From a virus: a DNA stretch of 64,000 nucleotides. Under the pieces are notes generated by a model that did no database searches, was not told the DNA's origin, and saw nothing but the letters and a program-made list of their open reading frames with translations. Position 1 is the stretch's first letter, and every line of letters begins with the position of its first letter. The stretch covers positions 4,275 to 68,274 of the IMG/VR virus record IMGVR_UViG_3300025645_000062; one strand, written 5' to 3'. Both the position numbers and the translations under genes were made by a program. Positions 1,725 to 26,666 of this stretch are shown here, one piece after another.

Positions 1725-2876
1725 ATGAAAAACGTAACCGAAGATACACTCATTGATTTAAAAATGCGTATGGCTATGGATCAAAATTTACTGTTCTTCA
1801 CCTCCGTGCTTTATGGTTTAGAACTTAAATTAGGGGATACCCCTTATAATACTGCTTGTACCGATGGTGTAAGTATTATTTTTACTAAAGAATTTCTTGA
1901 AGGAATGTCTGAAGACGAAGCTTTAGGACTACTCCTTCATGAAGTTCGACATGTAACAGATATGCATCAATTCAGGTTAGCAGGTCGTGACCCAAAACTT
2001 TGGAATGCTGCATGTGATTATGCAATTAATTACGACATTATTAACGATGGTTTTAAACTGCCTCAGTTAGAACATGCTTGCTATGATAAAAAATACGCAA
2101 ACATGGCTGCTGAAGAAATTTATGAAGACCTTTTAAAAGATTCTCCTGAAGCACAGCCTATGATTTCTGATTTAAAAAAAAATACAGCTGAGGATGATTC
2201 ACCTGAAAAAGAAATAGATAAAGAAATTGAAACTGAAATTAAAGATTTAATTATTCAAGCTTCTCAAATTACTGAAAGAGTCTCAGAGAGTGCTGCAAGT
2301 AAAATACCTAGCCATATTAAACGTATGGTTAAAGAATGGTTAAACCCTGTAGTGCCTTGGCAAAACATACTTCAGAAGTACATGAACCAGAAATGTAAAG
2401 ATGATTATTCTTGGCAGCGTCCAAATAGACGATATGCAGCTCATAAACTGTATGTGCCTAGTCTGTATTCTGAGCAACTTGGAAACATACATGTATTTAT
2501 TGATGGTTCCTGCTCTGTTTCCACTGAAATGTTTAACATGCAAGTCGGTCAAATCAACTGGATTAAAAACAATTTAAACCCCCGTGAACTACGTATTATT
2601 GTATTCAATACCAAAATAGTAGACGAGTTCATCTTTGATGATTGCACGCCAATTAGAGTGGAATTTAAAGCTCGTGGTGGTACAGCTGTTAAAGAAATAG
2701 TTACCTACATGGAAGAAAACAAAGCTGAATGTAATATTGTTATGACTGATGGTTACTTCAGACATATTTCACTTGAAAATGTAAAAGATGATGTGCTTGC
2801 CCTTATCTACGATAATGATAATTTTAAGTGGGAAGGTGCTACAACTATTTACCTACCTGCGGAAAAATTAAGATGA
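1725..2876 (+). CDS. Metallopeptidase-like plus vWA domain protein (N4 gp25/DUF2201-like)
   Basis: TACTDG, HEVRH zinc motif, WNAACDYAIN, MIDAS-like DGSCS, RGGT and MTDGY. Confidence 0.85.
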   Translation: MKNVTEDTLIDLKMRMAMDQNLLFFTSVLYGLELKLGDTPYNTACTDGVSIIFTKEFLEGMSEDEALGLLLHEVRHVTDMHQFRLAGRDPKLWNAACDYAINYDIINDGFKLPQLEHACYDKKYANMAAEEIYEDLLKDSPEAQPMISDLKKNTAEDDSPEKEIDKEIETEIKDLIIQASQITERVSESAASKIPSHIKRMVKEWLNPVVPWQNILQKYMNQKCKDDYSWQRPNRRYAAHKLYVPSLYSEQLGNIHVFIDGSCSVSTEMFNMQVGQINWIKNNLNPRELRIIVFNTKIVDEFIFDDCTPIRVEFKARGGTAVKEIVTYMEENKAECNIVMTDGYFRHISLENVKDDVLALIYDNDNFKWEGATTIYLPAEKLR

Positions 2877-3316
2877 AAAGCGAACTACTAACACAAATTG
2901 ATCTCTATTTATTTGGTAACACTATTAACGAACTAAGAAAAATATACAGGCAAGCTGTAAAAATAAATAAAACTGGATTTACTTATGGTTTTTTTAATCA
3001 AGCTTTAGTCTCAAACTTATCTACTCGGTTTACTTTACCTCCTTCAGCTGAAACTCTTGAATACTTGGAACCTTATATTGAAGAGTATGCTTTTGTTATA
3101 CGCAAAAGAGAATTAATCCAGTGTTACTTTCTTCAGTTTATGAATCAAAGTCAAAACGATATAGATATTCTTCATTTACTTCCAACAAAGTTATTAGCTA
3201 AATTTGACCTTACAATAGAGCCAAAAAAAACTATTCAACTTGTGGAAATATTTAAACAAAAACCTGAATATGAAATGATTAAACAACAAGAAGTATTCAA
3301 ATTAATGGGACTCTAA
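2873..3316 (+). CDS. Hypothetical protein
   Basis: ORF track 2828..3316; more likely start is ATG 2873, an ATGA overlap with the upstream stop. Confidence 0.65.
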   Translation: MKSELLTQIDLYLFGNTINELRKIYRQAVKINKTGFTYGFFNQALVSNLSTRFTLPPSAETLEYLEPYIEEYAFVIRKRELIQCYFLQFMNQSQNDIDILHLLPTKLLAKFDLTIEPKKTIQLVEIFKQKPEYEMIKQQEVFKLMGL

Positions 3317-3317
3317 C

Positions 3318-3614
3318 ATGTCAAAAAATTTAACGCAGATACACCTCGATTTTTCCTACCACACTTCAATTCTTTTACCTTTTAAAGAAAGTGCTCAACT
3401 TTTAGCTTTATTAGAAAAAGCTCAAATTGTAATAGATACCTATGGTGGAGCAGAGAATACAATAAGAAATAGTTTTGAAAAAAATGAAGTAGTAATAAAA
3501 CCTTACTGTATGACAAAATATCAAAATATTCTTACTGCACAAACTTTAGGAGTTAGTTACAAAAATTATATGGAAGAATTAGAAAAAGCAAAAGGAGAAA
3601 AAAATGCTGAATAA
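3318..3614 (+). CDS. Hypothetical protein
   Basis: 98-aa ORF, GGGA RBS, operon packing. Confidence 0.65.
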   Translation: MSKNLTQIHLDFSYHTSILLPFKESAQLLALLEKAQIVIDTYGGAENTIRNSFEKNEVVIKPYCMTKYQNILTAQTLGVSYKNYMEELEKAKGEKNAE

Positions 3615-4815
3615 AGGACAAGAAAAAGTATTTACCCAAATACAAGAATTTCTAGTAAGTGATAATGTTTTCTTCTCACTTGAAAGTGGAGGTGGCTATG
3701 GTAAAACATTTTTATTAAACCACCTCGAAAATAAAATTCCTGAGCTTAACAAAATACGTAGTTTATTACATTTACCTCAAATAGGTAAAATGATATACAC
3801 CGCTACTACTAATAAAGCTGCTTCACTGCTAGGTAACAATAGCAGTACCATACATAAATTATTTAAAATTTACCCAAAAACTAACTATAAAACAGGAGTT
3901 ACCCATTATAAATTAGGGGATACACCTAACTTATATGAAGAAATTTTAATCTTAGATGAAAGCTCAATGCTTGACCCTCAAGTATTTCAAATTATACAAG
4001 ATAAAATTAAAGGTAGAGCTAAAGTCATATTTGCACTTGACCCCTACCAACTTGCTCCTATAGGATATGCGTCCCCTGTTGTAAATACTTTGATAGCGAA
4101 TCTCCCTAAAGGAGAACTGACTGAACCAATGAGACAGGATAAAGAATCGCATTTATTTAAGATGTGTGACTTGCTTCGTGAAAACGTGCGTAATCAAACC
4201 TACACACCAATTACAGTAGGGAAAGGTATACGTTCAGTCAGTGGTGCTGAGTTTCAAAAAGAATACTTAGAAGCTTTTAAAAATAATGAAGATGCACGAA
4301 TTATAGCTTTTTCTAACACTACAGTTGAGTCACATAATGCGTATGTTCGTAAAACTTTAAAACAGACAAATAGGTTTCAAGAAGGTGATCTTGTAGTTGC
4401 TGCTGCAGCTATGGAAAACGTACCTGAAATAAAAGTAGAAGAAACTTACACCATACGTAATATAGGCAAACACTTAAACGATGGACATATTGATTACTAC
4501 GAAGTAGACCTAGGTTTACATCAATGGTTCAAAGTCCCTTCCAACAAGCAAGCTTATTTTAAACGTTTAAAACAAGCACAACTCGAAGGTAAGCAAAACG
4601 GTGATTGGTCAGTGTACTACACCTTAAAATCTAATTATTTAGATATTCGTGATGGCTTTGCTTGTACAGCTCATAAAGCTCAAGGCAGTACTTACGATAA
4701 AGTCTTTTTAGACTTTGCAGATCTTACACAGTGCTCTGATTTAAATACGTTTCTACGTGCTCTTTACGTAGCTGTAAGCCGAGCTAAACATGAAGTAATA
4801 ATTTACGGGTTATAA
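3604..4815 (+). CDS. SF1B Dda/RecD-like DNA helicase (N4 gp37-like)
   Basis: GGGYGKT Walker A, ATTNKAA, LDESSM, QLAP, TAHKAQGSTY and LYVAVSRA motifs. Confidence 0.9.
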   Translation: MLNKGQEKVFTQIQEFLVSDNVFFSLESGGGYGKTFLLNHLENKIPELNKIRSLLHLPQIGKMIYTATTNKAASLLGNNSSTIHKLFKIYPKTNYKTGVTHYKLGDTPNLYEEILILDESSMLDPQVFQIIQDKIKGRAKVIFALDPYQLAPIGYASPVVNTLIANLPKGELTEPMRQDKESHLFKMCDLLRENVRNQTYTPITVGKGIRSVSGAEFQKEYLEAFKNNEDARIIAFSNTTVESHNAYVRKTLKQTNRFQEGDLVVAAAAMENVPEIKVEETYTIRNIGKHLNDGHIDYYEVDLGLHQWFKVPSNKQAYFKRLKQAQLEGKQNGDWSVYYTLKSNYLDIRDGFACTAHKAQGSTYDKVFLDFADLTQCSDLNTFLRALYVAVSRAKHEVIIYGL

Positions 4816-13766: not shown

Positions 13767-16700
13767 CTATAAAAGAAGGTGTGCGTCCGAAGCCATACCC
13801 AAAAAGTTTACTGTACCTGTTGCAGCAACTAAATCTTTATTAATTAAGGAAGTTTCAAACAACGAAGGAACCCCTAACTGAATTGCTGCCAGTATTTGTA
13901 CAATAGTTCTTGATGGACTCTTCTTAATTGTAGCCCACATAACAGGGTGTTTACGCATAAAATATTTAAAGAAAGGTGTAACCCCTAATTTATTTGCGTA
14001 ATCCATTAAAGGATTTTGGTTCCTGTTATAGTTAATAAACTCACTACGAGCCTGTTCAATAGCATCTTCATGTGACATACCTTCTTGGGTTGTTAAATGT
14101 GTATACAGAATAAACTTAGATACAAAATCTCCTAATTCTAAACCCTCGTTTAATAATTTATATACGCTAGAATCTTGTGTAATTGCCACTTCTTTACCTA
14201 CGTTTACAAAAGCGTTATTTTCAGGTAATGCATCTTCAAACTTTGCAGACAAATTTTCTAAAAACTTTTTACGAAAACCATCGCGTTTAGACTCTTCACC
14301 CAATTCTTCAATAACACTCGGATTCATTCCTTCTTCAGATATAAGTCTGAATAATGGATTAGACTCTCGAGACTGCTTAAGTAAAACAAACTCACTATTT
14401 AATTTAGCTTTTTCCTCTACATCCGTTACTATTTTAAGTTTAGCTTGAAGTATGTATAATCGCTCTGAAATTGTATCGTATTCCCTTTTAGCATTGACAC
14501 CCAATAAACCATTAGAATACACATCTTCAACTGGAACACCTCTACCCACTAATTGATTAATGTTTGACATAAGATTAGCAGCAGGAACAACTACGGATTT
14601 AACTACAACTAAGTCTTTACCTATCGAAACTACTTCTTGTGTTCCCAATTCAGCTTTACGTAATATATTAATTAATTTTGGATGAAATATTTTTTTCATA
14701 AGTTCAGTAACAGTACGCATATAGGTTTCTTCATCAAAACCTTTAGGTCTAAATAAAGCTTTAATTGAGACTTCTCTAAAACCTAACGCTTGATTAATAT
14801 CATCTCTATGCACGTATATTACAGGTTCACCAAAATAAGTTTTAGCAGTATCTTTCATTTCTTGTGGAGCTAACTGCCATGCTTCACGAACCTGTCTATT
14901 AGGTGAATCTACAGATACCCTTACCCAAGCTTTTTTATTACTGCTACTAGTATATTCAGCATATAATTCTTTAACTAATTCAACATTATTAAAAGTACCT
15001 AATTTTTCTGCCTGTAAACGTCCTGCGTACTCAGACAACATATCTGACCAGTCACCACTTACACCTGCAAGACGAGTATACTCAGCTCTAGGTAGTTCAT
15101 ATTTATAACTTACAATTTGACCTGACTGGTTTAAGTTAGGAACATATCCCCCTTTATCTATCGGAGAAGGTTCACGAATCTTACTGCTCATAGCCGCTGT
15201 ATAAGCTTTAGCATTGTTACTTGTAATTTCACCGCTATCCCATAAGTTTAATCCTTCAGACCTTACAGCACCTTTAGCAGCTAAGCTAATAGATGAATCA
15301 ATAAGGCTAATGGCACCACTTACGTATGGAACAGCTCCACCAACCTCGTTATAAATTACGTAGTGTTTTTCATCCGAGTGTGGAGCAGCTACTTCGTGTA
15401 GTACTTCATGGCTAGGAAATTCTGCTAATTGAGACTTAGAAACAATACGAATATTTGTATTCACATCTGTAATATCAGGAGTATTTCCTTTAGGTACTTG
15501 ATTTAAAATACCTAAACCGTATCGGTTAACTAAATCTGTCTGATTAGCTTTAATTTGAGCGTGAATTACATTAAATGCATCTCCTTGAGAATCATATAAT
15601 TCTGCAAGAATTTCACGAGTACCACTATCCATATACTGTATAGCGGATAATGCTGCTAATTGATCAAGCATAGGTACCAAAGTACTGTCTAAAGTAGGGC
15701 TGTACTCTACTTCTGCAGATGTACCTGTCAAACGGCTAATTGAATAAGCATTAGGATACCCCATACCCCGTGTAGCACCTCCTTGAACCAAACGATAACC
15801 TAAAGCTTTAGCTTCATTAATCATCATGGTTTGATGTGCTTTGGTTACATTAGGTACAGTTGTATTTAAAATTTGATTTTGAAGTATATTAATACGTGTG
15901 TTTCTAGTAGAAGCATCTTCTAAGAGCATTTGAACGTCTTTTACACTCATCCCATGCTCTTCTATCAAAGAACCTAAATCAGCCTTTATATCACCTTCTA
16001 CAATAGCTTTTGACTCATCTTTAGTTAAAGTTTTGCTAAAAATATCAGTTAAAATATTTTTTATACCCCGTGCAGTACCTGTGTGTACAGCATCTACTTT
16101 TGACTTACCTATATCAACTCGTCTATCCACCTTTACTGAGTGTGATTGAGTACGTTTAAGCATTTCAAGTAAGTTATTTCTCCAGAATCCTGGGACTGTA
16201 GTTTCGCCTTCTCCCCTAGGTGTATAATCCAAAATCATATCTGAAACACTTAGACCTTGAGGAATTTCCTTACCTGAGATTTTTGAAATAACTACTCGTG
16301 CTGTTTTAGCAAACTGTTTACCTACAAACTGAAAAGAAGCATCTAATTTTCTCTCGTAATTTACCAATTTATTGTTAAATTTATTATCAAACAGTTTTTT
16401 ACTTAAAAACATATTATCAATAGTCATTTGCGTTTGAAGACTTGCATCGCCTGCACGAATACCACTAAGCGCATTAGCAGATTTAACAACAGCGTCTCTT
16501 ATTACTTGTCTAACTTTTTCAAACCAGTTGGAATGCGTAGGAGTTGCTTCTTTAATATCTACTGTTTTTAAAGCTGCTTTTAGCTCTGGAGATACTTCAC
16601 TATAAGCTGCAAAACGAGCAACTCTATTAACATCATCAGTTTTAAACAATAAAGTGTGTACATCTGCTGCCATACGTAAGTGTGTTACATACGATGGATC

Positions 16701-19700
16701 ACTCTCTTTAATAGAAGCAGGAACCAAATCAGATACTTTAATAGTTTTGCTTGCTTGTAAATAAATTTTATCTAAGTGTCTTCTTTGGTAGTATTTATTA
16801 TCTCTACCTATAGAAAGAACACCTGTAAGTTGTGAAAGTATTTCTACTTCAGCATCAGTTAATGCTCCTTTTGCAGAAAGTATACGTAACTTGGAAGTAG
16901 AATCTTTTAGCACATTAGTGTATTTAATAAATTCTTTATAAGCTTTGGTATCTGATTTCTTAATACCACCTATATCATCATTATTATCAATAAGCTCTTT
17001 AATACCTATTTCTAACCCAGATATAGCATTCATTACTTTGTCTCGTAATTGTGCTAAACGATTAGTTTCTTCAGTTGTGTAAGATCTATCTGTAAATCTG
17101 TTATTTAATCTGTCTTCAGAGTTAAGTGGAACATCTGTTATAGGAAAAGTTTTATCCGTAGTTTTGACAATATTAGATGTTTTACCCATTTCAAACATAA
17201 ATGCTTGCAATAAAGTTACACGGTTAACACTATTATCATTGTTTTTAGGGAAATCTGCAGGATTAATCCAACTACCTACAAGACTGCTTAATAGTTTTGT
17301 TAAACTTTGTAATATTGCACCAATAATACCTACAACTTCAGTACCCACTTGATCAGTAATATCTTCCCGTAAATAGGAGTCAACACTCATATCTTCGGGG
17401 TTCTGGTTCAAATGCGCAGCATACTCTTGTATAAGCATATACTCTTTACGTACCCTATCTGAGTCAGTTTTACTAACTGTATTATTAATATCTTGTAATA
17501 CTAACCATAAATTATGTAGGGTAGGTTTACTCACTAGAGTATCTTCAGACAGAGTTAAAAACTTTTGCATATCTTGTTTGAATGCAGCGTACAGTTTATT
17601 CTGTTTAGACGTACCGTTCCCCCCAATTATGTTATTAAGTCCTCCAACCATATTTGCATGAGTTAGCTCATGTTGCATAGCAGTCATAGCTTCAGCAATT
17701 GAGATACCCTCAGGAATATATATAATTGGTGTAAAAGTAATTAAACCTGTTTTTGCATTAGGAGCACTTTTTTCAATAACATGCCTACCTTTAATATTGG
17801 TTGTTAAACCGTACTTAGTAAAATATTTTTTATCTACAATACGAATTACCTGACCATTTAAATTACTTTTAGTTATATTAGAATAATCATACTCTTTATT
17901 CTTCCTGTTCCATACAGGGTTTACTTGAAATAAAGTAGTATTTAATGAAGCAGGTAAACCTGAATCTTTATCAATTTTAGCTCCAAGGTTTACACGGTTA
18001 AGGTTAAAGTCTTTTAAAACTTCAGTAGTAATCTTTATTTCTGTAAAACCTTTTTCTTTACTAAAATCTTTAAAGGTACCTTTTGAAAGAATAATACCTG
18101 CAAGCTTTTCCATCATACTTACTTTATGAGATTTTTCAGATTTCTCAGGAACGTTTTCTAAAATAGGCACTTCAAGACTTAAACTGTCTTGAGTAGCAAT
18201 ACGGTTTTTAAATGATTTTTCAAACTCAACTATTTCAGGTAGTGTTTTAAGTTTGTCTATTTTAGCATCACTTAACCCTGATTCTTGTTGCATCTGGCTC
18301 CAGTTAAAAGAACCATCTGAGTTAATAAGAATAGCCGTACCATCAATACCCGCTAACTGATGAACCTTAATACCTCCATCACTTTTTGCTACATAATCTA
18401 ATCGTGAAATTTCACCTTGTTTAGCAGTTCTATTTAACTTCTGCTGTAAACGTTGTAAATGTTGGGCAATATCACCTGAACCAAGTAAATTAGTGTAATC
18501 TCCTGCTGTAGTTCTACCACCAAGTTCAGTACTTAACTCGTTTAAAAATTCAGCATAATCCGTTGTAAACTCCGCAGTACCACTTTCAAGTAATGAATTT
18601 AAACCTGTGATAATTACTTCCCCCTCAAAAAGAAGAGGCTTAGCGGAGGCTTCGAGAACACCTGTAAGTGTATCCGCTACTTCTTTAACTGGGTCAGCTT
18701 GCATAATCGTAAGTGTTTCAGCTAAATTAGTAATAAAAGCACCAAGAACTGCCTCTGATCCAGAAGAAATATCTTGTGCATCATATACATTCAGATGTAA
18801 GGTGCCTGTAACGGCTTTCATTAGCTTTGTTGTTAATCTTTGCATCTCAGCATCAATTGAAATAATTCCGTTAGGGTTTGCTGTTACACCTGCTTCTTTA
18901 AGAGGGGCAGCACCTGTGTGAACATCTTCAGGTGTTTTTGCTAATATGTCCGACTCAGTATCCACACTAAATACAGGTATTGTTGTTCCTTGCTGCTGTT
19001 TACTATCTTGTGCTCTTGCACGTTTATTAAGGAAAGTTAACCCCTCAATAGCTAAATCCATCTCAGGAAACATAGAAGATAAAGCTTGTTTAATTTTAGA
19101 TAAGTCTTCTTTACTTAATGAAGCTGTTGGAGGTAGTTTTCTTTTCTTAATTACAGCCTTAGTTAGTTTTACTTGAGCCATGTTATATAACGCAACCATC
19201 GTACCTGTTGCCATAGTAACTTGATCAGTTACATCTTTCGAACGGTAAAGTACATCAGATATGGCTCTATCTATAGACTTACCTAAAGTTTCTTTTACAT
19301 GTTTTGTAATATCTTCTTGTTGTTTATCTGTAAGAGTGTAATTAGATAGTTTAACATCATCCATTACAGGCACTGAATTACCTTCCCAAAATACATCGTT
19401 CCAACCTTTTAATTGAATGCGTTCAGGTGAGTTAATAGGGGTACCTATAGCAGCAGATACATCCATATAAAACTTAGCAAGAAAACCCTCACCAGATTTA
19501 GCCCCGTAAATTAAACCTGATACAAGTGCTTTTAATGAACCACCATACACAGTAGATGTAACCCCTGCTTTAGAAGCATTACGTTCAAATATTTCACCAA
19601 AGCCAACAAAAGATACTTGGTCTTTTAAAAATGCCCATGCTTTAGCTGTATCATCAGACAGTTCATCATTAGCTTTCATATTTTTTAAGTTATTTGTAGC

Positions 19701-22700
19701 TTCACCTGAAATAGTCTGGTACATATCCATCATTGCAGGGTCATGATGGGTATCTGTAGCATCTAGGCTATCTTTTAAACCACCCATAGCTAAAAGTCTT
19801 TTAAGGTCGTACCCTTTCGCATCTACAATTCCCATACCATAAGCCCAATTACTATGAAATACCCCGTTAGTTTTACCATCTACTTCGATAGGTAAAGGTT
19901 TTTGAGTGTACCCATTAAAAATTGAATCAAGTGCCTCAATATACTCAACTGTAGGAGCTTTATAGTTTAAACTTTCTTCTCTTTGCCATGCTAAAAACTC
20001 AGGAATAGTCTTAGCTTTACTTAACTTAATTTCTTTACCTAACAAAAATAACTTAGCAAAAGTTTCTTTAAGACTTATTTCGTTAGATTGTTTATCTACT
20101 TTTACACCTAAGCCTAAACCTAATGCCAACACATAATGTTTTAATGCACTAGTAGGGTTAGATTTGTAATTTTTAACTAACTTCGCCCTTGAACCATGGA
20201 CTTTAATGTTTCCACGGTTAAAAGAAGTACGGACTAAAATACGGTGAAGTTTGTTTGCTTGGGGATTAACTTCCCCCTCAAAAAACTGTCTACCATTGGC
20301 AGAAAAAAATGATGAATAATATATTGGAACAGATTTCTTGTAGTAAGGTGACTTTTCGTTTGATGACTCTTCTTGTAAACGAATATACAGCGCATACGCA
20401 CTTGTAAACTCAGCTTTATAACCTTCTTTTTTACCTATTTTAGCTAGTTGATCATTTACATTTAAAGGTAAAATTGTAGTCTCGACTTTATTAATTAAAC
20501 GTGTACCTCCCAATATATCTATATCTTCTGGCTCATGTAAGTATTGTTCTACAAAAGCAGTAGCAGTTGCTTTTAAATCAGTCTTACCATCTACCTTTAC
20601 AAGGACACTTTTAAGCATCAACTCAAATTTAACATTATCTAAGTAAAATGGAGTACTTTCTGTAAGCTCAGCCATTTCTCTGGCCTTCACAGGTAAGTGT
20701 GAATAGTCTGTATTCGGTGGAGTACCTATATGGTTTAATCTATTTCGTTTAACACCATACTCTGCTTTAAGTATTTTAGTATCACCTTTTAATAGTAAAG
20801 AACTTAAATTTACTTCAGGGTTACGCGTATACCCATAATACGATTTATTATTATGTTTTACTGTAACCATATCAACACCTTTAGTATCACCAATCATACG
20901 TGTGACTGCAGAAGCTAAAAAAGTATTTAAAGCAGGTAAATACTGGTTTTGGTCGTAAGCTTCAACTAGTTTTGTGTTACGGGCTACAGCACCACTAATT
21001 ACACTATCTGGGATAAAAGTACCTTTACCTGCAAAAGTAGATTGCAGCGAAGTATTACCTCTATCAATCTTTTCTACATACATTTTAAGCTGCTTACGTG
21101 GTAAGTATTTAGTGTGTCCAATATATTCCATACCTTCAGCATAACTTAAAAACGAAGTCTGAATAAAATGTTCTGGTATGTTCCCATATTCATCTATAAG
21201 TAAAACTGAAACTCTACCCATATTTACACTAGTATTTAGTGGTGTACTTTTAATAGCTTGATGTATGTTGTTTTCAAACTTAGTTTTAAACTGAGCATAG
21301 TCTTGAACCAGTGCCATTACATCCTCTACTAATACATCGTGCTTCTCAGCAAATTCAGCCATAGCTACAGTATTATCTGAAGTAAGATTAAGTATTGAAG
21401 ACATATCCCATAAAGCAGACTCTTTAAATGAACCTAAAGAAGTTTTTAAAGGATTATCTTCTTTAAGTGAATTAAGTAATGCTTTGGCAGGATGGCCATC
21501 AGGCATAGTACGGATATCTTTAGCAAATTTCTGTCTAAAAGATTCTTGAATAGCGGGTAAAGTTTTAATACCCAACCTTTTTTTACCTCCCCTTTTACCT
21601 ACTAAACTTTCCTCAACTAAACTTCCTAGTGTAAAAATACTATCTTGGATATAAGCTTCAACAGTACTTTTTGCAGCGTCCTTAGAAAGAATATTAGTTT
21701 TTATTTCATCAGCAATTTGCTGAGAAATACTTTTAGTAGACTTTGTTTCACCTCTTACAATTGCCTTAAGTACTGCAGGCTTCATACCTATAGCCACAGC
21801 TAAAATATCAAGGTTATATTTAGCAATTGCAATAGTTTCAGCTATTGAATTAATACGTGAATATTGACTATGTGTAGCAGCTTCCATGTCATAAGAAGTT
21901 TTACCTTCTTTTGCCATACGAGCAGATTGCTGTTTAGCAACTTTAACTTCTGTAGTTTTTTGGCTAACTTCTTCTGCTACAAAATACTTACTTCTTACTT
22001 TATTAAATAAAAGAATACTATTTTTAAGGGCTTCCTCTAATTCTTTAACTTGAGTAACTAACTCAACTCGCTCAAGTTTAATTTCATTTAAATTAGATTT
22101 AACTTCTAACTGTTTAGCTGCTACATCTTCTCTATTTGTTTTAGATGTTACTTTAGCTCTAGCTGCTTCACCTTTTAGTTTTTTACGTAAAGTATTATTA
22201 ACTACATATGCTTTAGACAGCTGTCCAAGACGTTTACGTAACGTGCGAATTTCTTGGTACATGGAAGCAAACGCTCTGCGTTTGGTTATATACTTTTTTT
22301 GCTCAACTACTGAACCGCTTATTCTTTCCAATGGTTCAGGTAGTAAATCATTCATAGCTGTAAAGCTCTCAGCAGCAGCCTCAGAAGCTATTACCTCTTC
22401 TGCGGCTAATTGCTTAACTTCTTCAGTTAACACCTCAGAATACGCTTTTAAAGCTTCAGTTGTACGGTCTTCTTGCGAAGATACAAAAGGAGCGTCTGCT
22501 AAAAATAATTTATAAGCATCAAACCAGATAGACTTATTAGCATCTGTAAGTAGCCCTGATTTAACAATATTAGCATATATAGTACCTTTACTGCTTAAAG
22601 GTATATTCTTCATCTTACCTAAGATAAGTTTAAGTATTTCTTCTGCAGGCATGTTTTTAATAACATTTTCTTCAACACCTGTTATTTCACTGATACCCGT

Positions 22701-25700
22701 AACTACTGCAGGAGTAGCTAAGACTGAACCAGATAAAATATCTGTAGGAGTTAAAGTATGTAATACTTTTGTTTTTACTTTAAATACCTCTTGTTTAGTA
22801 GGTGCAATCATACTCATATTTGCTTGTATAAGTTGACTAAGTGCTGTGACACTTTTACTTGAAACACCTAAAAGTTCTACAATGTGTTTTACAAAAGTAT
22901 CTAAAAAACTAGAGTTTAGTTTGTTAACTTTAACTGAACCAAGATAGTTAATAAAATCAGTGTTACTCATTCCCATTACAATAAATTCTTGAATATTATT
23001 TAATGGATAAGCCCACTTAATTGCATCTTCTTTAGATGCTTGTTTTTTAACTTGTTTTAATAAATTTGTAATTTGGGTATAAAATACTTTTTGCTCAGGT
23101 GTATTACTTTCTTTCGGTTTAGCAGAATTCCATAAAAAACTATGAAGCAACTCGTGTAAGATAACCTCACCTTTTAACTTGGGGTCAGTTATGTTATTAG
23201 CAATATATACTTTACCTTCCGTTGCTTTATAAGTACCTAGTGCATGGGAGCCATCAGAATGTTTTATAAGTTTATCTGAGTTAGGTTCTACATAAATAAC
23301 TTCAGTATCTTTAGGTAAAGCGTTTTTTAATGCTTCTGCAACTTCAGTTAAGTTACCATACACACCTGACTCAATTTGTACCGTAAGGATTTCAGCACCA
23401 TTAGTAACAACAGATGTAGAAGCTTTATTATCTTCTTTAATCTTTGACCATACACCTGAACCAGAATCTACTTCCTCGTAACCTTTAAAAGACAAGTATT
23501 GAGCTAATCTACCTTCTCCTGTCTTATTATAACTTCTGTTTCGTGCTTCAAAATTGTCTGCAATAATAGTGGCACCTGCCTCTACTGCTTTATTAACTTC
23601 CTTAGCTGTAGCTGATTGAGCACTAAACTTCTTACCATTCTTCCCATTTACACTTACAAAAACAGTATCGTCTGCAGAATAAACACCTGTATTAGCTTTT
23701 TCTCCCCAAGCTAATCGGTATTCTTCTGTAGACGTATCTTTGGCACCAAAGCCAATAAATTTATTAGCTTGGTCAGACTTCCTTTGGTCTTTATTAAGTA
23801 ACTCTGTAGTTAACCTACCTGAACCAGCGAGCACTACCTTAGTAGGTTCAGCTTTCTTTCTTAACACCACCTGTGCATCATGCTGTATAACATTACCATC
23901 ATTGTCAGTGAGTGTGACTGTAGCAGTTATACGACCATCACTTCCTTCACGAATTTCACTAATTTTAGTTATAACAGTATCTTCAGGCAAAGAATCGAGG
24001 GCTACTTCATACCCTGTTCCTTCAAGACCTACAACAATACCAACAGAAGTGATATCCCTTTGTGTTGTGGGTTTGTCACTTCTATTAGAAGAGAATGTAG
24101 TGGTAGTAATACCATCATCACTTACTTTAGTATTCTTAAAGAATGTACGGGTTCTACCCTTTCTATCCGTAGAGGTAAGAGTTCCCATTGGAGACTCTGT
24201 AGTAGGTTTAGTAACAACTTCTTCTTCAACCTTCTTACCTTCAGGGTCAAGGATGTCCCTAGCCAGTGTATCAATTTGATTTAAGGTATCTAAATCCTTT
24301 GAAACTGCATCAATAGTGCGTTGCAGTCTACCCATACCTTTATAAGTAAAGCTTTTTGAACCTTTACCCATTGCACCAGATGTATCCCATACTGCTTTAC
24401 CTAATGAAGGGTCAGCTTTTAAACCTTCAAGAGCTGCTAGCTTACCAGTCTGGTTAGACTGTAAATAGCCTATAAACAAGTCATAAACAGCTTCTGCTTC
24501 CTGAGTATTACCTTTACCTAAAGCTGTAAGAAATGTGTCTACATGTTTACCTAAAGTACGATCACCTTTACTACCAAATAGTTCAGCACGTACTCTTTCA
24601 GTACCTGTAAGCGGTTTACCTTTAGTATCTACTTCATTGGCTCTAAGTGTTGAGACAAACTCAAATAACTTTTGCTTATCAACATCTTGGGTAGATTGAG
24701 CAAATAGATCAAGAGTTTCCCCTGACAACTGGCTTAGTTTATCTTCAGAATATAAAACTACATCTCCTATAGTCTCGATTAAAGCATCTACTTGTGCTGT
24801 TGAACTATCCTGACCTAGTTCAGTCTTTTGCTTTATTAAAGACATTACTAACTGTTCTGTATCACCTACTTCAATATTATTAATTACTTTAGCTACAGTG
24901 TTATAGTCAGCTTTAGCACTATCTAAAGGGTTAAGAGTCGTAGCTAAGTTAGCAATTGTTTGCGCATCTTTTTCAGATAAATCCGAATTACTAAGTAACT
25001 TAACACCTGCCACAGTTAAATCCGTGTTGTCAGTTTGTGCTTTGTAAAGTGACTGACCAATAGCTTCAAAATCTTTACCATCCTTACGTAAGTTTTCTTC
25101 AGATAAATCTGTATTCAAAGTATGTTCTAGTACTGAATTAACATAAGATTTTACCTCAGCATTATCTGTTTCATAATTTGAATAAGTATCAATAACTTCC
25201 TTAGTTCTACTAGCTACTTCTACCTCATCTTCTACAGGCGCTCTTTCAGGAGCATACCTTTCTATTACATTATTCGGTTCAGCTTTAGAAGTACCTGCCT
25301 CTGGTTCCTTATTTTTTATTGTAGCGTTGTTATTTTCTTCTTGCAGTTCTTGTACAGCTTCAGCTAATTCTGTAGAATTTTGATCAACACGAGCTTGAGA
25401 AAGTTTTTCAACTGCTTTAGTAACAGTTCTTCCTGCACCTGCCATTACACCACCAGATAAACCACCTGCTGCAAGACCTGCACCTGCAGATTCACCTACA
25501 CCTTCAAGTGCATCTTTAGACTCATCACCTTCTTTAACTTGTATATTTGAAACAAGTTGTCCTGCACCCGATTGAACTGTTTCTTCAACTGCTTCAACTG
25601 CTGCGCCTTTAGCGGTTGATTTAATTATACCTTTTTTAACACCTTTATTTAATACGTTACCAAACGTATCTGCAGCACCTGTAGCTTTACCTACTAAAGC

Positions 25701-26666
25701 AGCAATTGAACCAGAAATAATTGCTGTGTCACGAGCACCTTCTTCAGCAAATTGTAAACGTACTTCTTCAAAAGTAGCGTTAGGCATCTTCTTAGTTAAT
25801 TCTTGAAAGTCACTAGACTGTTTAAGTACTTCTGGAGTAAGGTTTAATATTGCATCCCGAGTTTGAATAGCATTATTGGTACCCTCGGACACACCTGTAT
25901 AAACTGCACCTGTTATTCCACCTGCTTTAGTTGCAGCTTTTTGCCCTGCTTTAGCTATAAAAGCTTTTGAAGCAGCACTTTCAGCCACACTTTTACCTAA
26001 CTTTTTCTTTATTCCCGACTTAACTGCAACTTTTGCAGCTCCACCAATAATACCACCAGTTGCAGCCATCGCAACTAGGTCAGCAGAACTCTTAGCAGCC
26101 TCAGAAACAGCAGCTAATGGATTAGTTATGTAATCACCAACCGTACCAAAGAACTCGCTTAGAGACTCTCCTGCGGAGATGTTACCATCACCCATTTGTA
26201 TAGCTTTGCGTTCTGCAGCAGCATTAACAATATTTGCTTTAGCTTGACGTAAATCCATTGAATATTCTTTTTCGGATTCTTCAGCTTCAGCTTGCTGAGT
26301 AGCAACACCTTCCCAACCAAATTTAGATAAAGCATCTGAATTAACTGCATCCCCTATTAAACCTGTTACACCATAACCTGTTTGAGCAAGCCTATCACCA
26401 AATGCAATACCAAGGTCAGTACCTAAATCTTCCATGGTTCCTTGGTTTCTTGTTGCCTTAAATATTCTCTGTTGGTTGAGAAAGTTTCTCATGTCTAGTG
26501 AATTAGCCGTAGGATTTTGAACCATGAACTCCTCAAGAGGAGCTACTAGTTGAGCATCGGTAAAAGCAGTTTGTTTTTTAAGATGAGCTTGACCCACCGC
26601 CTCTGCTTTCGCAGAAGTGATGTTTAAATTCATTGTGCGTTGGAAGAGATTGTCAGGTGTAACCAT
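13767..26666 (-). CDS. Virion-encapsidated RNA polymerase (N4 gp50-like), 4299 aa
   Basis: T7-like motif A DGKTNG (19863-19880), motif B RNASKAGVTSTVYGG (19539-19583), motif C VYDA (~18780); N4-like Gly/Ala-rich N-terminus (EAVEETVQSGAGQLVSN); no Cys seen. Confidence 0.95.
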   Translation of the reverse strand: MVTPDNLFQRTMNLNITSAKAEAVGQAHLKKQTAFTDAQLVAPLEEFMVQNPTANSLDMRNFLNQQRIFKATRNQGTMEDLGTDLGIAFGDRLAQTGYGVTGLIGDAVNSDALSKFGWEGVATQQAEAEESEKEYSMDLRQAKANIVNAAAERKAIQMGDGNISAGESLSEFFGTVGDYITNPLAAVSEAAKSSADLVAMAATGGIIGGAAKVAVKSGIKKKLGKSVAESAASKAFIAKAGQKAATKAGGITGAVYTGVSEGTNNAIQTRDAILNLTPEVLKQSSDFQELTKKMPNATFEEVRLQFAEEGARDTAIISGSIAALVGKATGAADTFGNVLNKGVKKGIIKSTAKGAAVEAVEETVQSGAGQLVSNIQVKEGDESKDALEGVGESAGAGLAAGGLSGGVMAGAGRTVTKAVEKLSQARVDQNSTELAEAVQELQEENNNATIKNKEPEAGTSKAEPNNVIERYAPERAPVEDEVEVASRTKEVIDTYSNYETDNAEVKSYVNSVLEHTLNTDLSEENLRKDGKDFEAIGQSLYKAQTDNTDLTVAGVKLLSNSDLSEKDAQTIANLATTLNPLDSAKADYNTVAKVINNIEVGDTEQLVMSLIKQKTELGQDSSTAQVDALIETIGDVVLYSEDKLSQLSGETLDLFAQSTQDVDKQKLFEFVSTLRANEVDTKGKPLTGTERVRAELFGSKGDRTLGKHVDTFLTALGKGNTQEAEAVYDLFIGYLQSNQTGKLAALEGLKADPSLGKAVWDTSGAMGKGSKSFTYKGMGRLQRTIDAVSKDLDTLNQIDTLARDILDPEGKKVEEEVVTKPTTESPMGTLTSTDRKGRTRTFFKNTKVSDDGITTTTFSSNRSDKPTTQRDITSVGIVVGLEGTGYEVALDSLPEDTVITKISEIREGSDGRITATVTLTDNDGNVIQHDAQVVLRKKAEPTKVVLAGSGRLTTELLNKDQRKSDQANKFIGFGAKDTSTEEYRLAWGEKANTGVYSADDTVFVSVNGKNGKKFSAQSATAKEVNKAVEAGATIIADNFEARNRSYNKTGEGRLAQYLSFKGYEEVDSGSGVWSKIKEDNKASTSVVTNGAEILTVQIESGVYGNLTEVAEALKNALPKDTEVIYVEPNSDKLIKHSDGSHALGTYKATEGKVYIANNITDPKLKGEVILHELLHSFLWNSAKPKESNTPEQKVFYTQITNLLKQVKKQASKEDAIKWAYPLNNIQEFIVMGMSNTDFINYLGSVKVNKLNSSFLDTFVKHIVELLGVSSKSVTALSQLIQANMSMIAPTKQEVFKVKTKVLHTLTPTDILSGSVLATPAVVTGISEITGVEENVIKNMPAEEILKLILGKMKNIPLSSKGTIYANIVKSGLLTDANKSIWFDAYKLFLADAPFVSSQEDRTTEALKAYSEVLTEEVKQLAAEEVIASEAAAESFTAMNDLLPEPLERISGSVVEQKKYITKRRAFASMYQEIRTLRKRLGQLSKAYVVNNTLRKKLKGEAARAKVTSKTNREDVAAKQLEVKSNLNEIKLERVELVTQVKELEEALKNSILLFNKVRSKYFVAEEVSQKTTEVKVAKQQSARMAKEGKTSYDMEAATHSQYSRINSIAETIAIAKYNLDILAVAIGMKPAVLKAIVRGETKSTKSISQQIADEIKTNILSKDAAKSTVEAYIQDSIFTLGSLVEESLVGKRGGKKRLGIKTLPAIQESFRQKFAKDIRTMPDGHPAKALLNSLKEDNPLKTSLGSFKESALWDMSSILNLTSDNTVAMAEFAEKHDVLVEDVMALVQDYAQFKTKFENNIHQAIKSTPLNTSVNMGRVSVLLIDEYGNIPEHFIQTSFLSYAEGMEYIGHTKYLPRKQLKMYVEKIDRGNTSLQSTFAGKGTFIPDSVISGAVARNTKLVEAYDQNQYLPALNTFLASAVTRMIGDTKGVDMVTVKHNNKSYYGYTRNPEVNLSSLLLKGDTKILKAEYGVKRNRLNHIGTPPNTDYSHLPVKAREMAELTESTPFYLDNVKFELMLKSVLVKVDGKTDLKATATAFVEQYLHEPEDIDILGGTRLINKVETTILPLNVNDQLAKIGKKEGYKAEFTSAYALYIRLQEESSNEKSPYYKKSVPIYYSSFFSANGRQFFEGEVNPQANKLHRILVRTSFNRGNIKVHGSRAKLVKNYKSNPTSALKHYVLALGLGLGVKVDKQSNEISLKETFAKLFLLGKEIKLSKAKTIPEFLAWQREESLNYKAPTVEYIEALDSIFNGYTQKPLPIEVDGKTNGVFHSNWAYGMGIVDAKGYDLKRLLAMGGLKDSLDATDTHHDPAMMDMYQTISGEATNNLKNMKANDELSDDTAKAWAFLKDQVSFVGFGEIFERNASKAGVTSTVYGGSLKALVSGLIYGAKSGEGFLAKFYMDVSAAIGTPINSPERIQLKGWNDVFWEGNSVPVMDDVKLSNYTLTDKQQEDITKHVKETLGKSIDRAISDVLYRSKDVTDQVTMATGTMVALYNMAQVKLTKAVIKKRKLPPTASLSKEDLSKIKQALSSMFPEMDLAIEGLTFLNKRARAQDSKQQQGTTIPVFSVDTESDILAKTPEDVHTGAAPLKEAGVTANPNGIISIDAEMQRLTTKLMKAVTGTLHLNVYDAQDISSGSEAVLGAFITNLAETLTIMQADPVKEVADTLTGVLEASAKPLLFEGEVIITGLNSLLESGTAEFTTDYAEFLNELSTELGGRTTAGDYTNLLGSGDIAQHLQRLQQKLNRTAKQGEISRLDYVAKSDGGIKVHQLAGIDGTAILINSDGSFNWSQMQQESGLSDAKIDKLKTLPEIVEFEKSFKNRIATQDSLSLEVPILENVPEKSEKSHKVSMMEKLAGIILSKGTFKDFSKEKGFTEIKITTEVLKDFNLNRVNLGAKIDKDSGLPASLNTTLFQVNPVWNRKNKEYDYSNITKSNLNGQVIRIVDKKYFTKYGLTTNIKGRHVIEKSAPNAKTGLITFTPIIYIPEGISIAEAMTAMQHELTHANMVGGLNNIIGGNGTSKQNKLYAAFKQDMQKFLTLSEDTLVSKPTLHNLWLVLQDINNTVSKTDSDRVRKEYMLIQEYAAHLNQNPEDMSVDSYLREDITDQVGTEVVGIIGAILQSLTKLLSSLVGSWINPADFPKNNDNSVNRVTLLQAFMFEMGKTSNIVKTTDKTFPITDVPLNSEDRLNNRFTDRSYTTEETNRLAQLRDKVMNAISGLEIGIKELIDNNDDIGGIKKSDTKAYKEFIKYTNVLKDSTSKLRILSAKGALTDAEVEILSQLTGVLSIGRDNKYYQRRHLDKIYLQASKTIKVSDLVPASIKESDPSYVTHLRMAADVHTLLFKTDDVNRVARFAAYSEVSPELKAALKTVDIKEATPTHSNWFEKVRQVIRDAVVKSANALSGIRAGDASLQTQMTIDNMFLSKKLFDNKFNNKLVNYERKLDASFQFVGKQFAKTARVVISKISGKEIPQGLSVSDMILDYTPRGEGETTVPGFWRNNLLEMLKRTQSHSVKVDRRVDIGKSKVDAVHTGTARGIKNILTDIFSKTLTKDESKAIVEGDIKADLGSLIEEHGMSVKDVQMLLEDASTRNTRINILQNQILNTTVPNVTKAHQTMMINEAKALGYRLVQGGATRGMGYPNAYSISRLTGTSAEVEYSPTLDSTLVPMLDQLAALSAIQYMDSGTREILAELYDSQGDAFNVIHAQIKANQTDLVNRYGLGILNQVPKGNTPDITDVNTNIRIVSKSQLAEFPSHEVLHEVAAPHSDEKHYVIYNEVGGAVPYVSGAISLIDSSISLAAKGAVRSEGLNLWDSGEITSNNAKAYTAAMSSKIREPSPIDKGGYVPNLNQSGQIVSYKYELPRAEYTRLAGVSGDWSDMLSEYAGRLQAEKLGTFNNVELVKELYAEYTSSSNKKAWVRVSVDSPNRQVREAWQLAPQEMKDTAKTYFGEPVIYVHRDDINQALGFREVSIKALFRPKGFDEETYMRTVTELMKKIFHPKLINILRKAELGTQEVVSIGKDLVVVKSVVVPAANLMSNINQLVGRGVPVEDVYSNGLLGVNAKREYDTISERLYILQAKLKIVTDVEEKAKLNSEFVLLKQSRESNPLFRLISEEGMNPSVIEELGEESKRDGFRKKFLENLSAKFEDALPENNAFVNVGKEVAITQDSSVYKLLNEGLELGDFVSKFILYTHLTTQEGMSHEDAIEQARSEFINYNRNQNPLMDYANKLGVTPFFKYFMRKHPVMWATIKKSPSRTIVQILAAIQLGVPSLFETSLINKDLVAATGTVNFLGMASDAHLLL

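Follow-up and report, generated by a model that had tools for sequence, protein, structure and literature searches.

The virion RNA polymerase (vRNAP) of the N4-like virus represented by IMG/VR record IMGVR_UViG_3300025645_000062 is enlarged by an insertion containing two domains which sequence comparison identifies as real, separable and mobile: a conserved alpha/beta domain, referred to here as module 2, and, directly behind it, an extra zincin-like HExxH...E domain, module 3. The DNA examined, hereafter the window, is a 64-kb stretch that makes up most of this 68,274-bp record, the completeness of which is estimated at 92%. The vRNAP gene occupies positions 13767..26666 of the minus strand as a single very long open reading frame (ORF), open throughout its 4299 codons, and its product is designated P0001. 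With moderate confidence in the explanation taken as a whole, we propose that region 22800-24200 is a lineage-variable insertion within the flexible linker connecting the N-terminal domain (NTD) with the polymerase domain (Pol) of an N4-like vRNAP, and that it holds a mobile module 2-zincin cassette delivered together with the polymerase. The parts of the insertion would be a putative Thr/Val-rich segment (module 1), module 2 and then, directly, the zincin-like domain. As injection of the polymerase precedes all phage gene expression, the cassette would be in the cell at time zero, where the zincin would either free the adjacent module 2 by self-cleavage or act on a host protein. Such a scheme would carry over the reasoning of Iyer et al. 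2017 (PMC5512222) on polyvalent proteins to a new domain combination.

By its sequence, the 4299-aa protein belongs among the N4-like vRNAPs. It matches phrog_2206 ('virion RNA polymerase') with an E-value of 2e-212, the best stretch being aa 3535-4277 (profile positions 2630-3377), and the similarity extends over the full length of the protein, including the C-terminal domain (CTD), with pieces of the NTD and Pol also matching. The match is discontinuous: there is none at aa 821-2050, a displaced zincin match excepted, or at aa 2901-3500. A tblastn search with the C-terminal 2299 aa of P0001 matched 468 phage records at 21-27% identity, nearly all of them annotated as Schitoviridae vRNAP. The gene neighbourhood is likewise N4-like, the ORFs adjoining the vRNAP gene matching a major head protein, a portal, a virion structural protein, a DNA polymerase and an N4-type primase. 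From this position among structural genes and by analogy with N4, P0001 is presumably packaged and injected. Both catalytic motifs of T7-like single-subunit polymerases, A (Asp) and B (R..K..YG), align with N4: motif A PLPIEVDGKTNG (VDGKTNG, Asp2263), which an earlier sequence-only reading of this DNA had correctly located near residue 2263 of a 4299-aa vRNAP, aligns with N4 PLYVEADGVTNG (Asp1556), and R2362, K2366 and Y2374 of motif B (R..K..YG) align with N4 R1663, K1667 and YG. Coliphage N4 gp50 (Schitoviridae, 3500 aa) also has an NTD, a T7-like Pol core with motifs A and B, a large CTD and a similar gene neighbourhood, as well as, behind the core, an HExxH motif at the C1 position of the CTD; P0001 is 799 aa longer.

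These data raise the question of where the extra length lies. Blastp gave three collinear anchors between P0001 and N4 gp50 (aa 72-408 = 108-439; 2028-2386 = 1326-1687; 3451-4270 = 2665-3457). The NTD (aa 110-808; 24243..26339, on the minus strand, as are all features given below) matches phrog_2206 positions 142-806 with E 6e-31. The polymerase core (aa ~2028-2759; 18390..20585), which contains Asp2263 and motif B, matches the same profile over aa 2256-2759 (positions 1451-1955), and the CTD (aa ~3451-4277; 13836..16316; blastp E 1e-40 to N4) is the best-conserved part of the vRNAP family. The equivalence of Asp2263 and Asp1556 leaves about 707 extra residues ahead of the core, in agreement with the roughly 700 counted from the letters, and the N4 anchors on both sides place them between the NTD and the core. 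The insertion begins where the family NTD ends in the phrog_2206 profile, at about aa 808 of P0001, since aa 110-808 correspond to NTD positions and none of aa 1301-2050 matches PHROGs as vRNAP. In N4, the NTD-Pol linker is a ~100-residue low-complexity stretch (residues 907-1006) between the membrane-inserting NTD and the polymerase (PMC13434306), and similar domain limits are given in PMC13492108. The linker of P0001, in contrast, holds modules 1-3 (aa ~827-1290), which take up the first part of the gap, and a lineage-specific block of ~730 aa (aa 1301-2030; 20577..22766). This block has no PHROG match and, within the local protein set, is common only to P0002, the closest relative of P0001; as about half of the extra residues belong to it, modules 1-3 fall short of explaining the whole excess. 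The block includes a Lys/Glu-rich stretch that resembles a coiled coil.

Module 2 spans aa ~955-1078 (23433..23804), as judged from its homology span, which is close to the limits of ~946-1075 first proposed for it. It is a conserved alpha/beta domain of ~125 aa belonging to an unnamed family. An exhaustive HMMER search of representative proteins with aa 821-1300 as the query returned 611 proteins at E <= 1e-3, 306 of them at E <= 1e-10; the carrier counts given here rest on the 150 matches listed out of these 611, and module 2 was present in 148 of the 150. The listed carriers comprised 27 proteins of at most 260 aa (many of them of ~130 aa, that is, module 2 alone), 33 vRNAP-like proteins, defined as those also matching the C-terminal region of P0001, and 88 others of 272-5289 aa; 115 of the 148 were without a polymerase. 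In 30 of the 33 vRNAP-like carriers listed, module 2 starts at residues 697-1382, in the same general place as in P0001. Forty-five IMG/VR loci carried the module, 15 of them as closed frames of at most 260 aa and 30 in frames longer than 1200 aa. In INPHARED, six of 50,697 records matched aa 822-1289, namely four stand-alone Vibrio phage genes and two copies of Cellulophaga phage phi14:2, the latter matched via the zincin, and module 2 was detected in none of the vRNAP genes among the 468 phage records that match the P0001 vRNAP.

Aligning the window copy and 21 stand-alone homologues (A1, 22 sequences) yields 18 invariant columns (K, K, G, G, T, Y, N, Y, F, S, G, A, D, N, G, E, L, W), all retained in the window, and the consensus is of the type KDQxK..ANKFIGxG..SST..Y...AN.G.Y..D.VFVS.NG...AGAT.ITD...R.R.YN.GER. 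The AlphaFold2 model built on A1 reaches a predicted local distance difference test (pLDDT) value of 91 and displays alternating alpha/beta elements in a three-layer fold, which agrees with independent folding of this module. Searches for a named relative, covering stand-alone homologues as well as the window copy, gave no Pfam match to the window copy at E 0.1, chance-level rows alone for 10 homologues at E <= 0.1, no match of LPD or other Pfam models to the window copy even at E <= 10, none in PHROGs at E <= 0.01 or in NCBIfam at E <= 0.1, unnamed 'hypothetical protein' clusters only in Atlas, no Foldseek fold match in PDB or BFVD at E <= 1e-3 and nothing significant in PDB sequences with aa 821-1300 as the query. 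Upstream of module 2, a discrete beta-rich domain had been proposed as the first of three modules; modules 2 and 3 are borne out by homology spans and models, whereas this one was not confirmed. Module 1 is a putative Thr/Val-rich segment (aa ~827-935; 23862..24188) conserved in P0002 and without a family or Atlas lead in Pfam, PHROG, NCBIfam or Atlas, and its C-terminal part alone recurs ahead of module 2 in a few matches, 5 of the 150 matches listed starting at query residue 75 or earlier.

The fusion partners of module 2 give an indication of its possible role. Among 45 mid-size carriers, Pfam detected SF1 helicase (four cases), LPD3 (two) and NADAR (two), with single cases of DUF4326, cpYpsA-SLOG, 2OG-Fe(II) oxygenase, PD-(D/E)XK and DUF7831. 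A partner set including LPD3, NADAR, DUF4326, cpYpsA-SLOG and SF1 helicases is typical of polyvalent proteins, and LPD3 is a domain named in PMC5512222. NADAR, DUF4326 and SLOG are treated jointly in PMC9503650 as phage domains that process ADP-ribose derivatives; the partners thus hint weakly at chemistry involving nucleotides or ADP-ribose. The Rossmann-like three-layer fold, the Gly-rich loop after strand 1 and the invariant Lys, Thr, Tyr, Asn, Ser, Asp and Glu residues make it most likely that module 2 binds or modifies a small ligand, which, judging from the fusion partners, may be a nucleotide or ADP-ribose derivative. A further-reaching proposal, which we advance as rather doubtful, is that module 2 represents an unnamed, widespread family of early-delivered Rossmann-like effectors that bind or degrade a nucleotide-derived host immune signal or a derivative of nicotinamide adenine dinucleotide (NAD) or ADP-ribose, are freed inside the cell by the zincin and are either encoded alone as early proteins or pre-loaded on ejected virion proteins. 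In Vibrio phages Kuja (L001 3977-4387) and SUMAE (L006 2965-3369), stand-alone module 2 genes lie directly upstream of the ribonucleotide reductase large subunit gene. A general link to ribonucleotide reductase was dropped, as neither nrdA nor nrdB was found within +/-4 kb of the 15 stand-alone IMG/VR loci.

Another important question is whether the HExxH motif of module 3 marks an intact domain or could be a chance occurrence. P0001 contains three HExxH motifs, while 0.05 would be expected by chance. Module 3 (aa ~1084-1292; 22791..23417) contains HELLH at aa 1171-1175 (23142..23156) and, downstream, Glu1227 in NIQEF (22986..22988), the candidate third metal ligand; H1171, E1172, H1175 and E1227 are each kept in 45 of 48 aligned homologous domains and, together with G1144, are invariant in the 10-row alignment A3. 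Sequence conservation thus identifies module 3 as an intact zincin-like domain beyond a chance motif, as the sequence-only reading had supposed from HELLH and the downstream QEF. Analysed alone, the segment matches phrog_2206 at positions 2043-2246 (E 2e-10), a region that in this family follows the polymerase core, and gives a weak match to a 'peptidase' PHROG. In first-pass phmmer searches, second-stretch matches fell just before the CTD of other vRNAPs (P0009 2295-2497, P0011 2608-2768, P0014 2727-2900), and jackhmmer in the local set reached N4 gp50 2155-2373, the vRNAP of a Sulfitobacter phage (2022-2220) and phi14:2 gp65 (200-367); the N4 match has E 4e-31 after iteration in a small local set with Z set to 1e6. 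Word-based homologue searches with the zincin found none among proteins of 378-2000 aa and P0001 itself only among those of 2364-7524 aa. In N4, the CTD-C1 subdomain (residues 2124-2375) bears a conserved HExxH (PMC13434306, a 2026 structure paper), and aa 2130-2448 were unified with zincin-like metallopeptidases by HHpred (PMC5512222). On these sequence grounds module 3 is homologous (paralogous) to the N4 CTD-C1 HExxH domain. Its AlphaFold2 model has a mean pLDDT of 68 with core blocks of 80-90 over segment residues ~40-165, so that for this module independent folding is borne out for the core alone. The topology begins with a helix and three strands, followed by the HExxH helix and then further helices, with HExxH and the downstream Glu on helices at segment residues 77-93 and 140-149; the zincin core is described as an N-terminal helix, a three-stranded sheet and two C-terminal helices (PMC5512222). 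Foldseek returned no match at E <= 1e-3 and a weak list of mostly zincins, and VIA Z-scores for the same model were 5-6.8 to zincins and 8.9 to a phage ejection protein.

The inserted modules are not collinear with N4: module 2 has no counterpart in N4, and the N4 counterpart of the zincin stands after the core. P0001 differs from N4 in possessing a second, canonical-looking C1-type zincin before the core, while its own C1-position region is too divergent for phrog_2206.

The two modules are also associated with each other outside the window. Where a carrier extends 260 aa or more beyond module 2 on the side considered, HExxH occurred within 260 aa downstream in 34 of 102 and within 260 aa upstream in 2 of 97; across these proteins the motif has an overall rate of 0.084 per 260 aa. 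In independent IMG/VR frames, HExxH followed module 2 in 8 of 30. The downstream motifs are of more than one sequence type, many of them reading ..YHEAMHxFF, and the zincin profile of the window detects the downstream copy in 5 of the 148 listed carriers. At the level of sequence, module 2 followed by HExxH is thus shown to be a recurrent, directional pair in virion-ejected proteins, which suggests that module 2 and the metallopeptidase work together; self-release of module 2 would be the simplest reading of this pairing. A complex prediction for module 2 and the zincin scored 0.00 and gave no verdict either way.

The comparison with P0002 (4156 aa) shows how the linker can change between close relatives. 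P0002 is 75% identical to P0001 over aa 15-1083 and 79% identical over aa 1282-4299, while an unrelated 102-aa segment replaces the 198-aa zincin of P0001, which makes the zincin a swappable cassette. The upstream HExxH is accordingly missing from P0002, in which the post-core HELTH is kept. The replacement segment (aa 1070-1171) matches ART-PolyVal (PF18760) at E 0.013 with 16.7 bits, under the gathering cut-off of 31.2; if this match is real, the same slot is occupied in P0002 by an ADP-ribosyltransferase-like domain. A search for close relatives in IMG/VR with the lineage-specific aa 1301-1700 found none, so the presence/absence map among near relatives is that of P0002. Such variability of linker content even among close relatives, together with the long, disordered linker of N4 (PMC13434306), is what would be expected if the linker merely tolerated insertions and the cassette were a functionless passenger. 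We regard this as very unlikely, given that the zincin retains intact catalytic-type residues that agree with the consensus of its family, that module 2 keeps every invariant column of its family and that the frame is open over all 4299 codons. The cassette swap, the stand-alone homologues and the varied positions in giant proteins mark modules 2 and 3 as independent, mobile domains.

The extra zincin could in principle have arisen by intragenic duplication of the C1 domain of P0001 itself. This origin was rejected, as direct blastp gave scattered short pieces and a quick tree grouped the domain elsewhere. The tree comprised 43 zincin domains retained at a domain E < 1e-10 and spanning at least 120 profile positions; its label 'upstream' was set by distance to the C-terminal match and is probably wrong for P0034, P0118, P0149 and P0101. 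At a Shimodaira-Hasegawa-like approximate likelihood ratio test (SH-aLRT) support of 98, the window zincin clusters with the upstream zincin of P0003, a different vRNAP (48% identical), and with P0007, which combines a zincin and a Dda-like helicase in 1098 aa; it lies apart from the N4-type C1 clade and from the C1-position copy of P0003 itself. The extra zincin is therefore a mobile sub-type and no recent copy of the C1 domain of P0001. Two zincin copies are also present in the vRNAPs P0003, P0004, P0008 and P0012, which agrees with the 'one or more MPTase domains' (MPTase, metallopeptidase) of Iyer et al. 2017 (PMC5512222).

The kinship with C1 also raises the possibility that, by analogy with N4, the polymerase itself is modulated by module 2 and the additional C1-type domain, which could form, for example, a second autoinhibitory or promoter-release element. 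In N4, the CTD including its HExxH subdomain packs on the Pol domain and autoinhibits the polymerase (PMC13434306, PMC13492108), and the extra domain is of the same family as this subdomain. The nearest relatives of the extra zincin, however, lie in the helicase fusion P0007 and in the upstream region of another vRNAP, contexts without Pol contact; moreover, the polymerase of P0002 does without it, and module 2 occurs mostly in proteins that have no polymerase (115 of the 148 listed). A regulatory role is accordingly unlikely.

Are the inserted domains delivered effectors or parts of the ejection apparatus? The zincin family extends to structural proteins. In PDB sequences, where N4 chains match by construction because N4 is part of the profile, the zincin profile matched 9sfn_G ('Internal virion protein', aa 416-557, E 1e-16) and 8vb2_A (PhiM1 gp48, aa 379-509, E 2e-6), T7-like internal virion/ejection proteins that share the domain with P0001 without having a polymerase and in which it is part of the ejectosome structure. 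A zincin of the same family is located at aa 200-367 of gp65 of Cellulophaga phage phi14:2 (tblastn E 6e-4; jackhmmer), a crAss-like 'RNA polymerase associated protein' that is a virion protein encoded beside the virion RNA polymerase (RNAP); this zincin has already been noted in print (bioRxiv 10.1101/2020.03.07.982082). Here, unlike in P0001, the zincin protein is separate and lies beside an unrelated two-barrel type RNAP, and no module 2 was detected in the phi14:2 record. The profile matches thus link N4 vRNAP, crAss-like gp65 and T7-like ejectosome proteins through what appears to be one domain. Scans of five large module 2 carriers other than vRNAPs gave virion-protein PHROG matches in every case, four of them to virion-structural/internal-virion families (phrog_30152, 342, 6958) and one to the vRNAP N-terminal region.

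From the T7-like ejectosome proteins, a structural or ejection role of the zincin follows as a live alternative. The inserted domains would then be ejectosome parts, for example spacers or membrane- or periplasm-facing units aiding passage through the tail and anchoring at the inner membrane, instead of delivered effectors, and the zincin-like fold would have been kept for a metal-stabilised structure or a single maturation cut. We consider this a possibility of some substance, yet a minority one. Given the occurrence of the zincin in structural ejection proteins and the description of the N4 vRNAP as packaged unprocessed (PMC5512222, PMC13492108), it is the main rival to delivery of a cassette. 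It is further favoured by the virion protein gp65, by the position of the insertion in the linker adjoining the membrane-inserting NTD (PMC13434306) and by the four structural carriers. It accounts less readily for the occurrence of module 2 as a ~130-aa stand-alone protein (27 of the 148 listed carriers and 15 of 45 IMG/VR loci), for its fusion to non-structural enzymes (NADAR, DUF4326, SLOG, helicases, 2OG oxygenase), for the dispensability of the zincin in P0002 and for the failure to detect module 2 in the vRNAP genes of the 468 matching phage records.

Several observations count against a delivered, self-releasing cassette. For none of the modules is an activity, a cleavage or a target known; the described unprocessed state of the packaged N4 vRNAP and the structural use of the zincin family in T7-like ejectosomes both bear on this; and the available text of PMC13434306, PMC13492108 and PMC5512222 reports no peptidase activity of the N4 HExxH domain. 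In addition, 68 of the 102 module 2 carriers have no HExxH within 260 aa downstream, and the zincin model is, as given above, moderately confident, with no Foldseek match at the threshold applied. Nevertheless, we favour the cassette delivered with the polymerase, and the sequence-only proposal that the injected polymerase doubles as a polyvalent carrier is supported in part, namely by the lack of collinearity with N4, the mobility of the domains, the virion-protein carriers and the polyvalent-type partners. The modules would then be candidate cargo, for example anti-defence effectors or a processing protease. P0001 shares with the polyvalent proteins of phages and conjugative elements (PMC5512222) a giant virion-delivered polypeptide in which several unrelated domains are combined and HExxH...E domains are interspersed, and both module 2 and the zincin recur in varied architectures.

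The idea of a polyvalent vRNAP is itself already in print: the polyvalent proteins described by Iyer, Burroughs, Anand, de Souza and Aravind 2017 (PMC5512222) include N4-like vRNAPs, to which one or more zincin-like metallopeptidase domains and other effector domains are ascribed, so the finding extends rather than changes current thinking. In the available text of that paper no directional association between module 2 and a zincin was found, and one of the 40 domains that it leaves unnamed may be module 2. No curated family or passage in the available printed text was found for the module 2 family, its directional zincin pairing or the NTD-Pol linker cassette swap; the supplementary lists of PMC5512222 may name module 2. 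What the window adds is a specific cassette, open to testing, on a protein whose entry into the cell precedes all phage gene expression, and the NTD-Pol linker of N4-like polymerases as a slot for domain swapping even between close relatives. Strongly conserved, unnamed in Pfam, PHROGs and NCBIfam, present in hundreds of representative clusters and in stand-alone forms, and linked directionally to a zincin, module 2 is a reasonable choice for functional screening, for instance for ligand binding or against defence-system panels.

In P0001, aa 2901-3500 (16167-17966) lie where CTD-C1 and the beginning of C2 are usually found; phrog_2206 has no match there although both flanks match, and the C1 region is therefore unusually divergent in this lineage. 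At the family C1 position lies HELTH (aa 2999-3003; 17658..17672), kept in P0002 at 2856. The motif and its position are as described in the sequence-only reading, and the region is probably a very divergent C1, as judged by location together with weak similarity to the C1 family (10 bits in jackhmmer, hhalign probability 12%). A third HExxH, HEVLH (aa 3753-3757; 15396-15410), lies in the CTD and is kept in P0002 (aa 3610); N4 gp50 has a single HExxH. In the NTD, a Gly/Ala-rich part (aa ~174-421; 25404-26147) also matches PHROGs of a DarB-like antirestriction protein (E 9e-12), an endolysin (3e-8) and an unknown giant protein; it aligns with N4 108-439, the region containing predicted membrane-spanning helices, which suggests a segment common to large ejected proteins. 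Two module 2 carriers resemble partial or split vRNAPs: P0029 (1360 aa) consists of a vRNAP NTD, module 2 and DUF7831, and P0013 (1314 aa) of module 2 followed by a zincin and the beginning of the CTD; these may be contig fragments or truly split genes.

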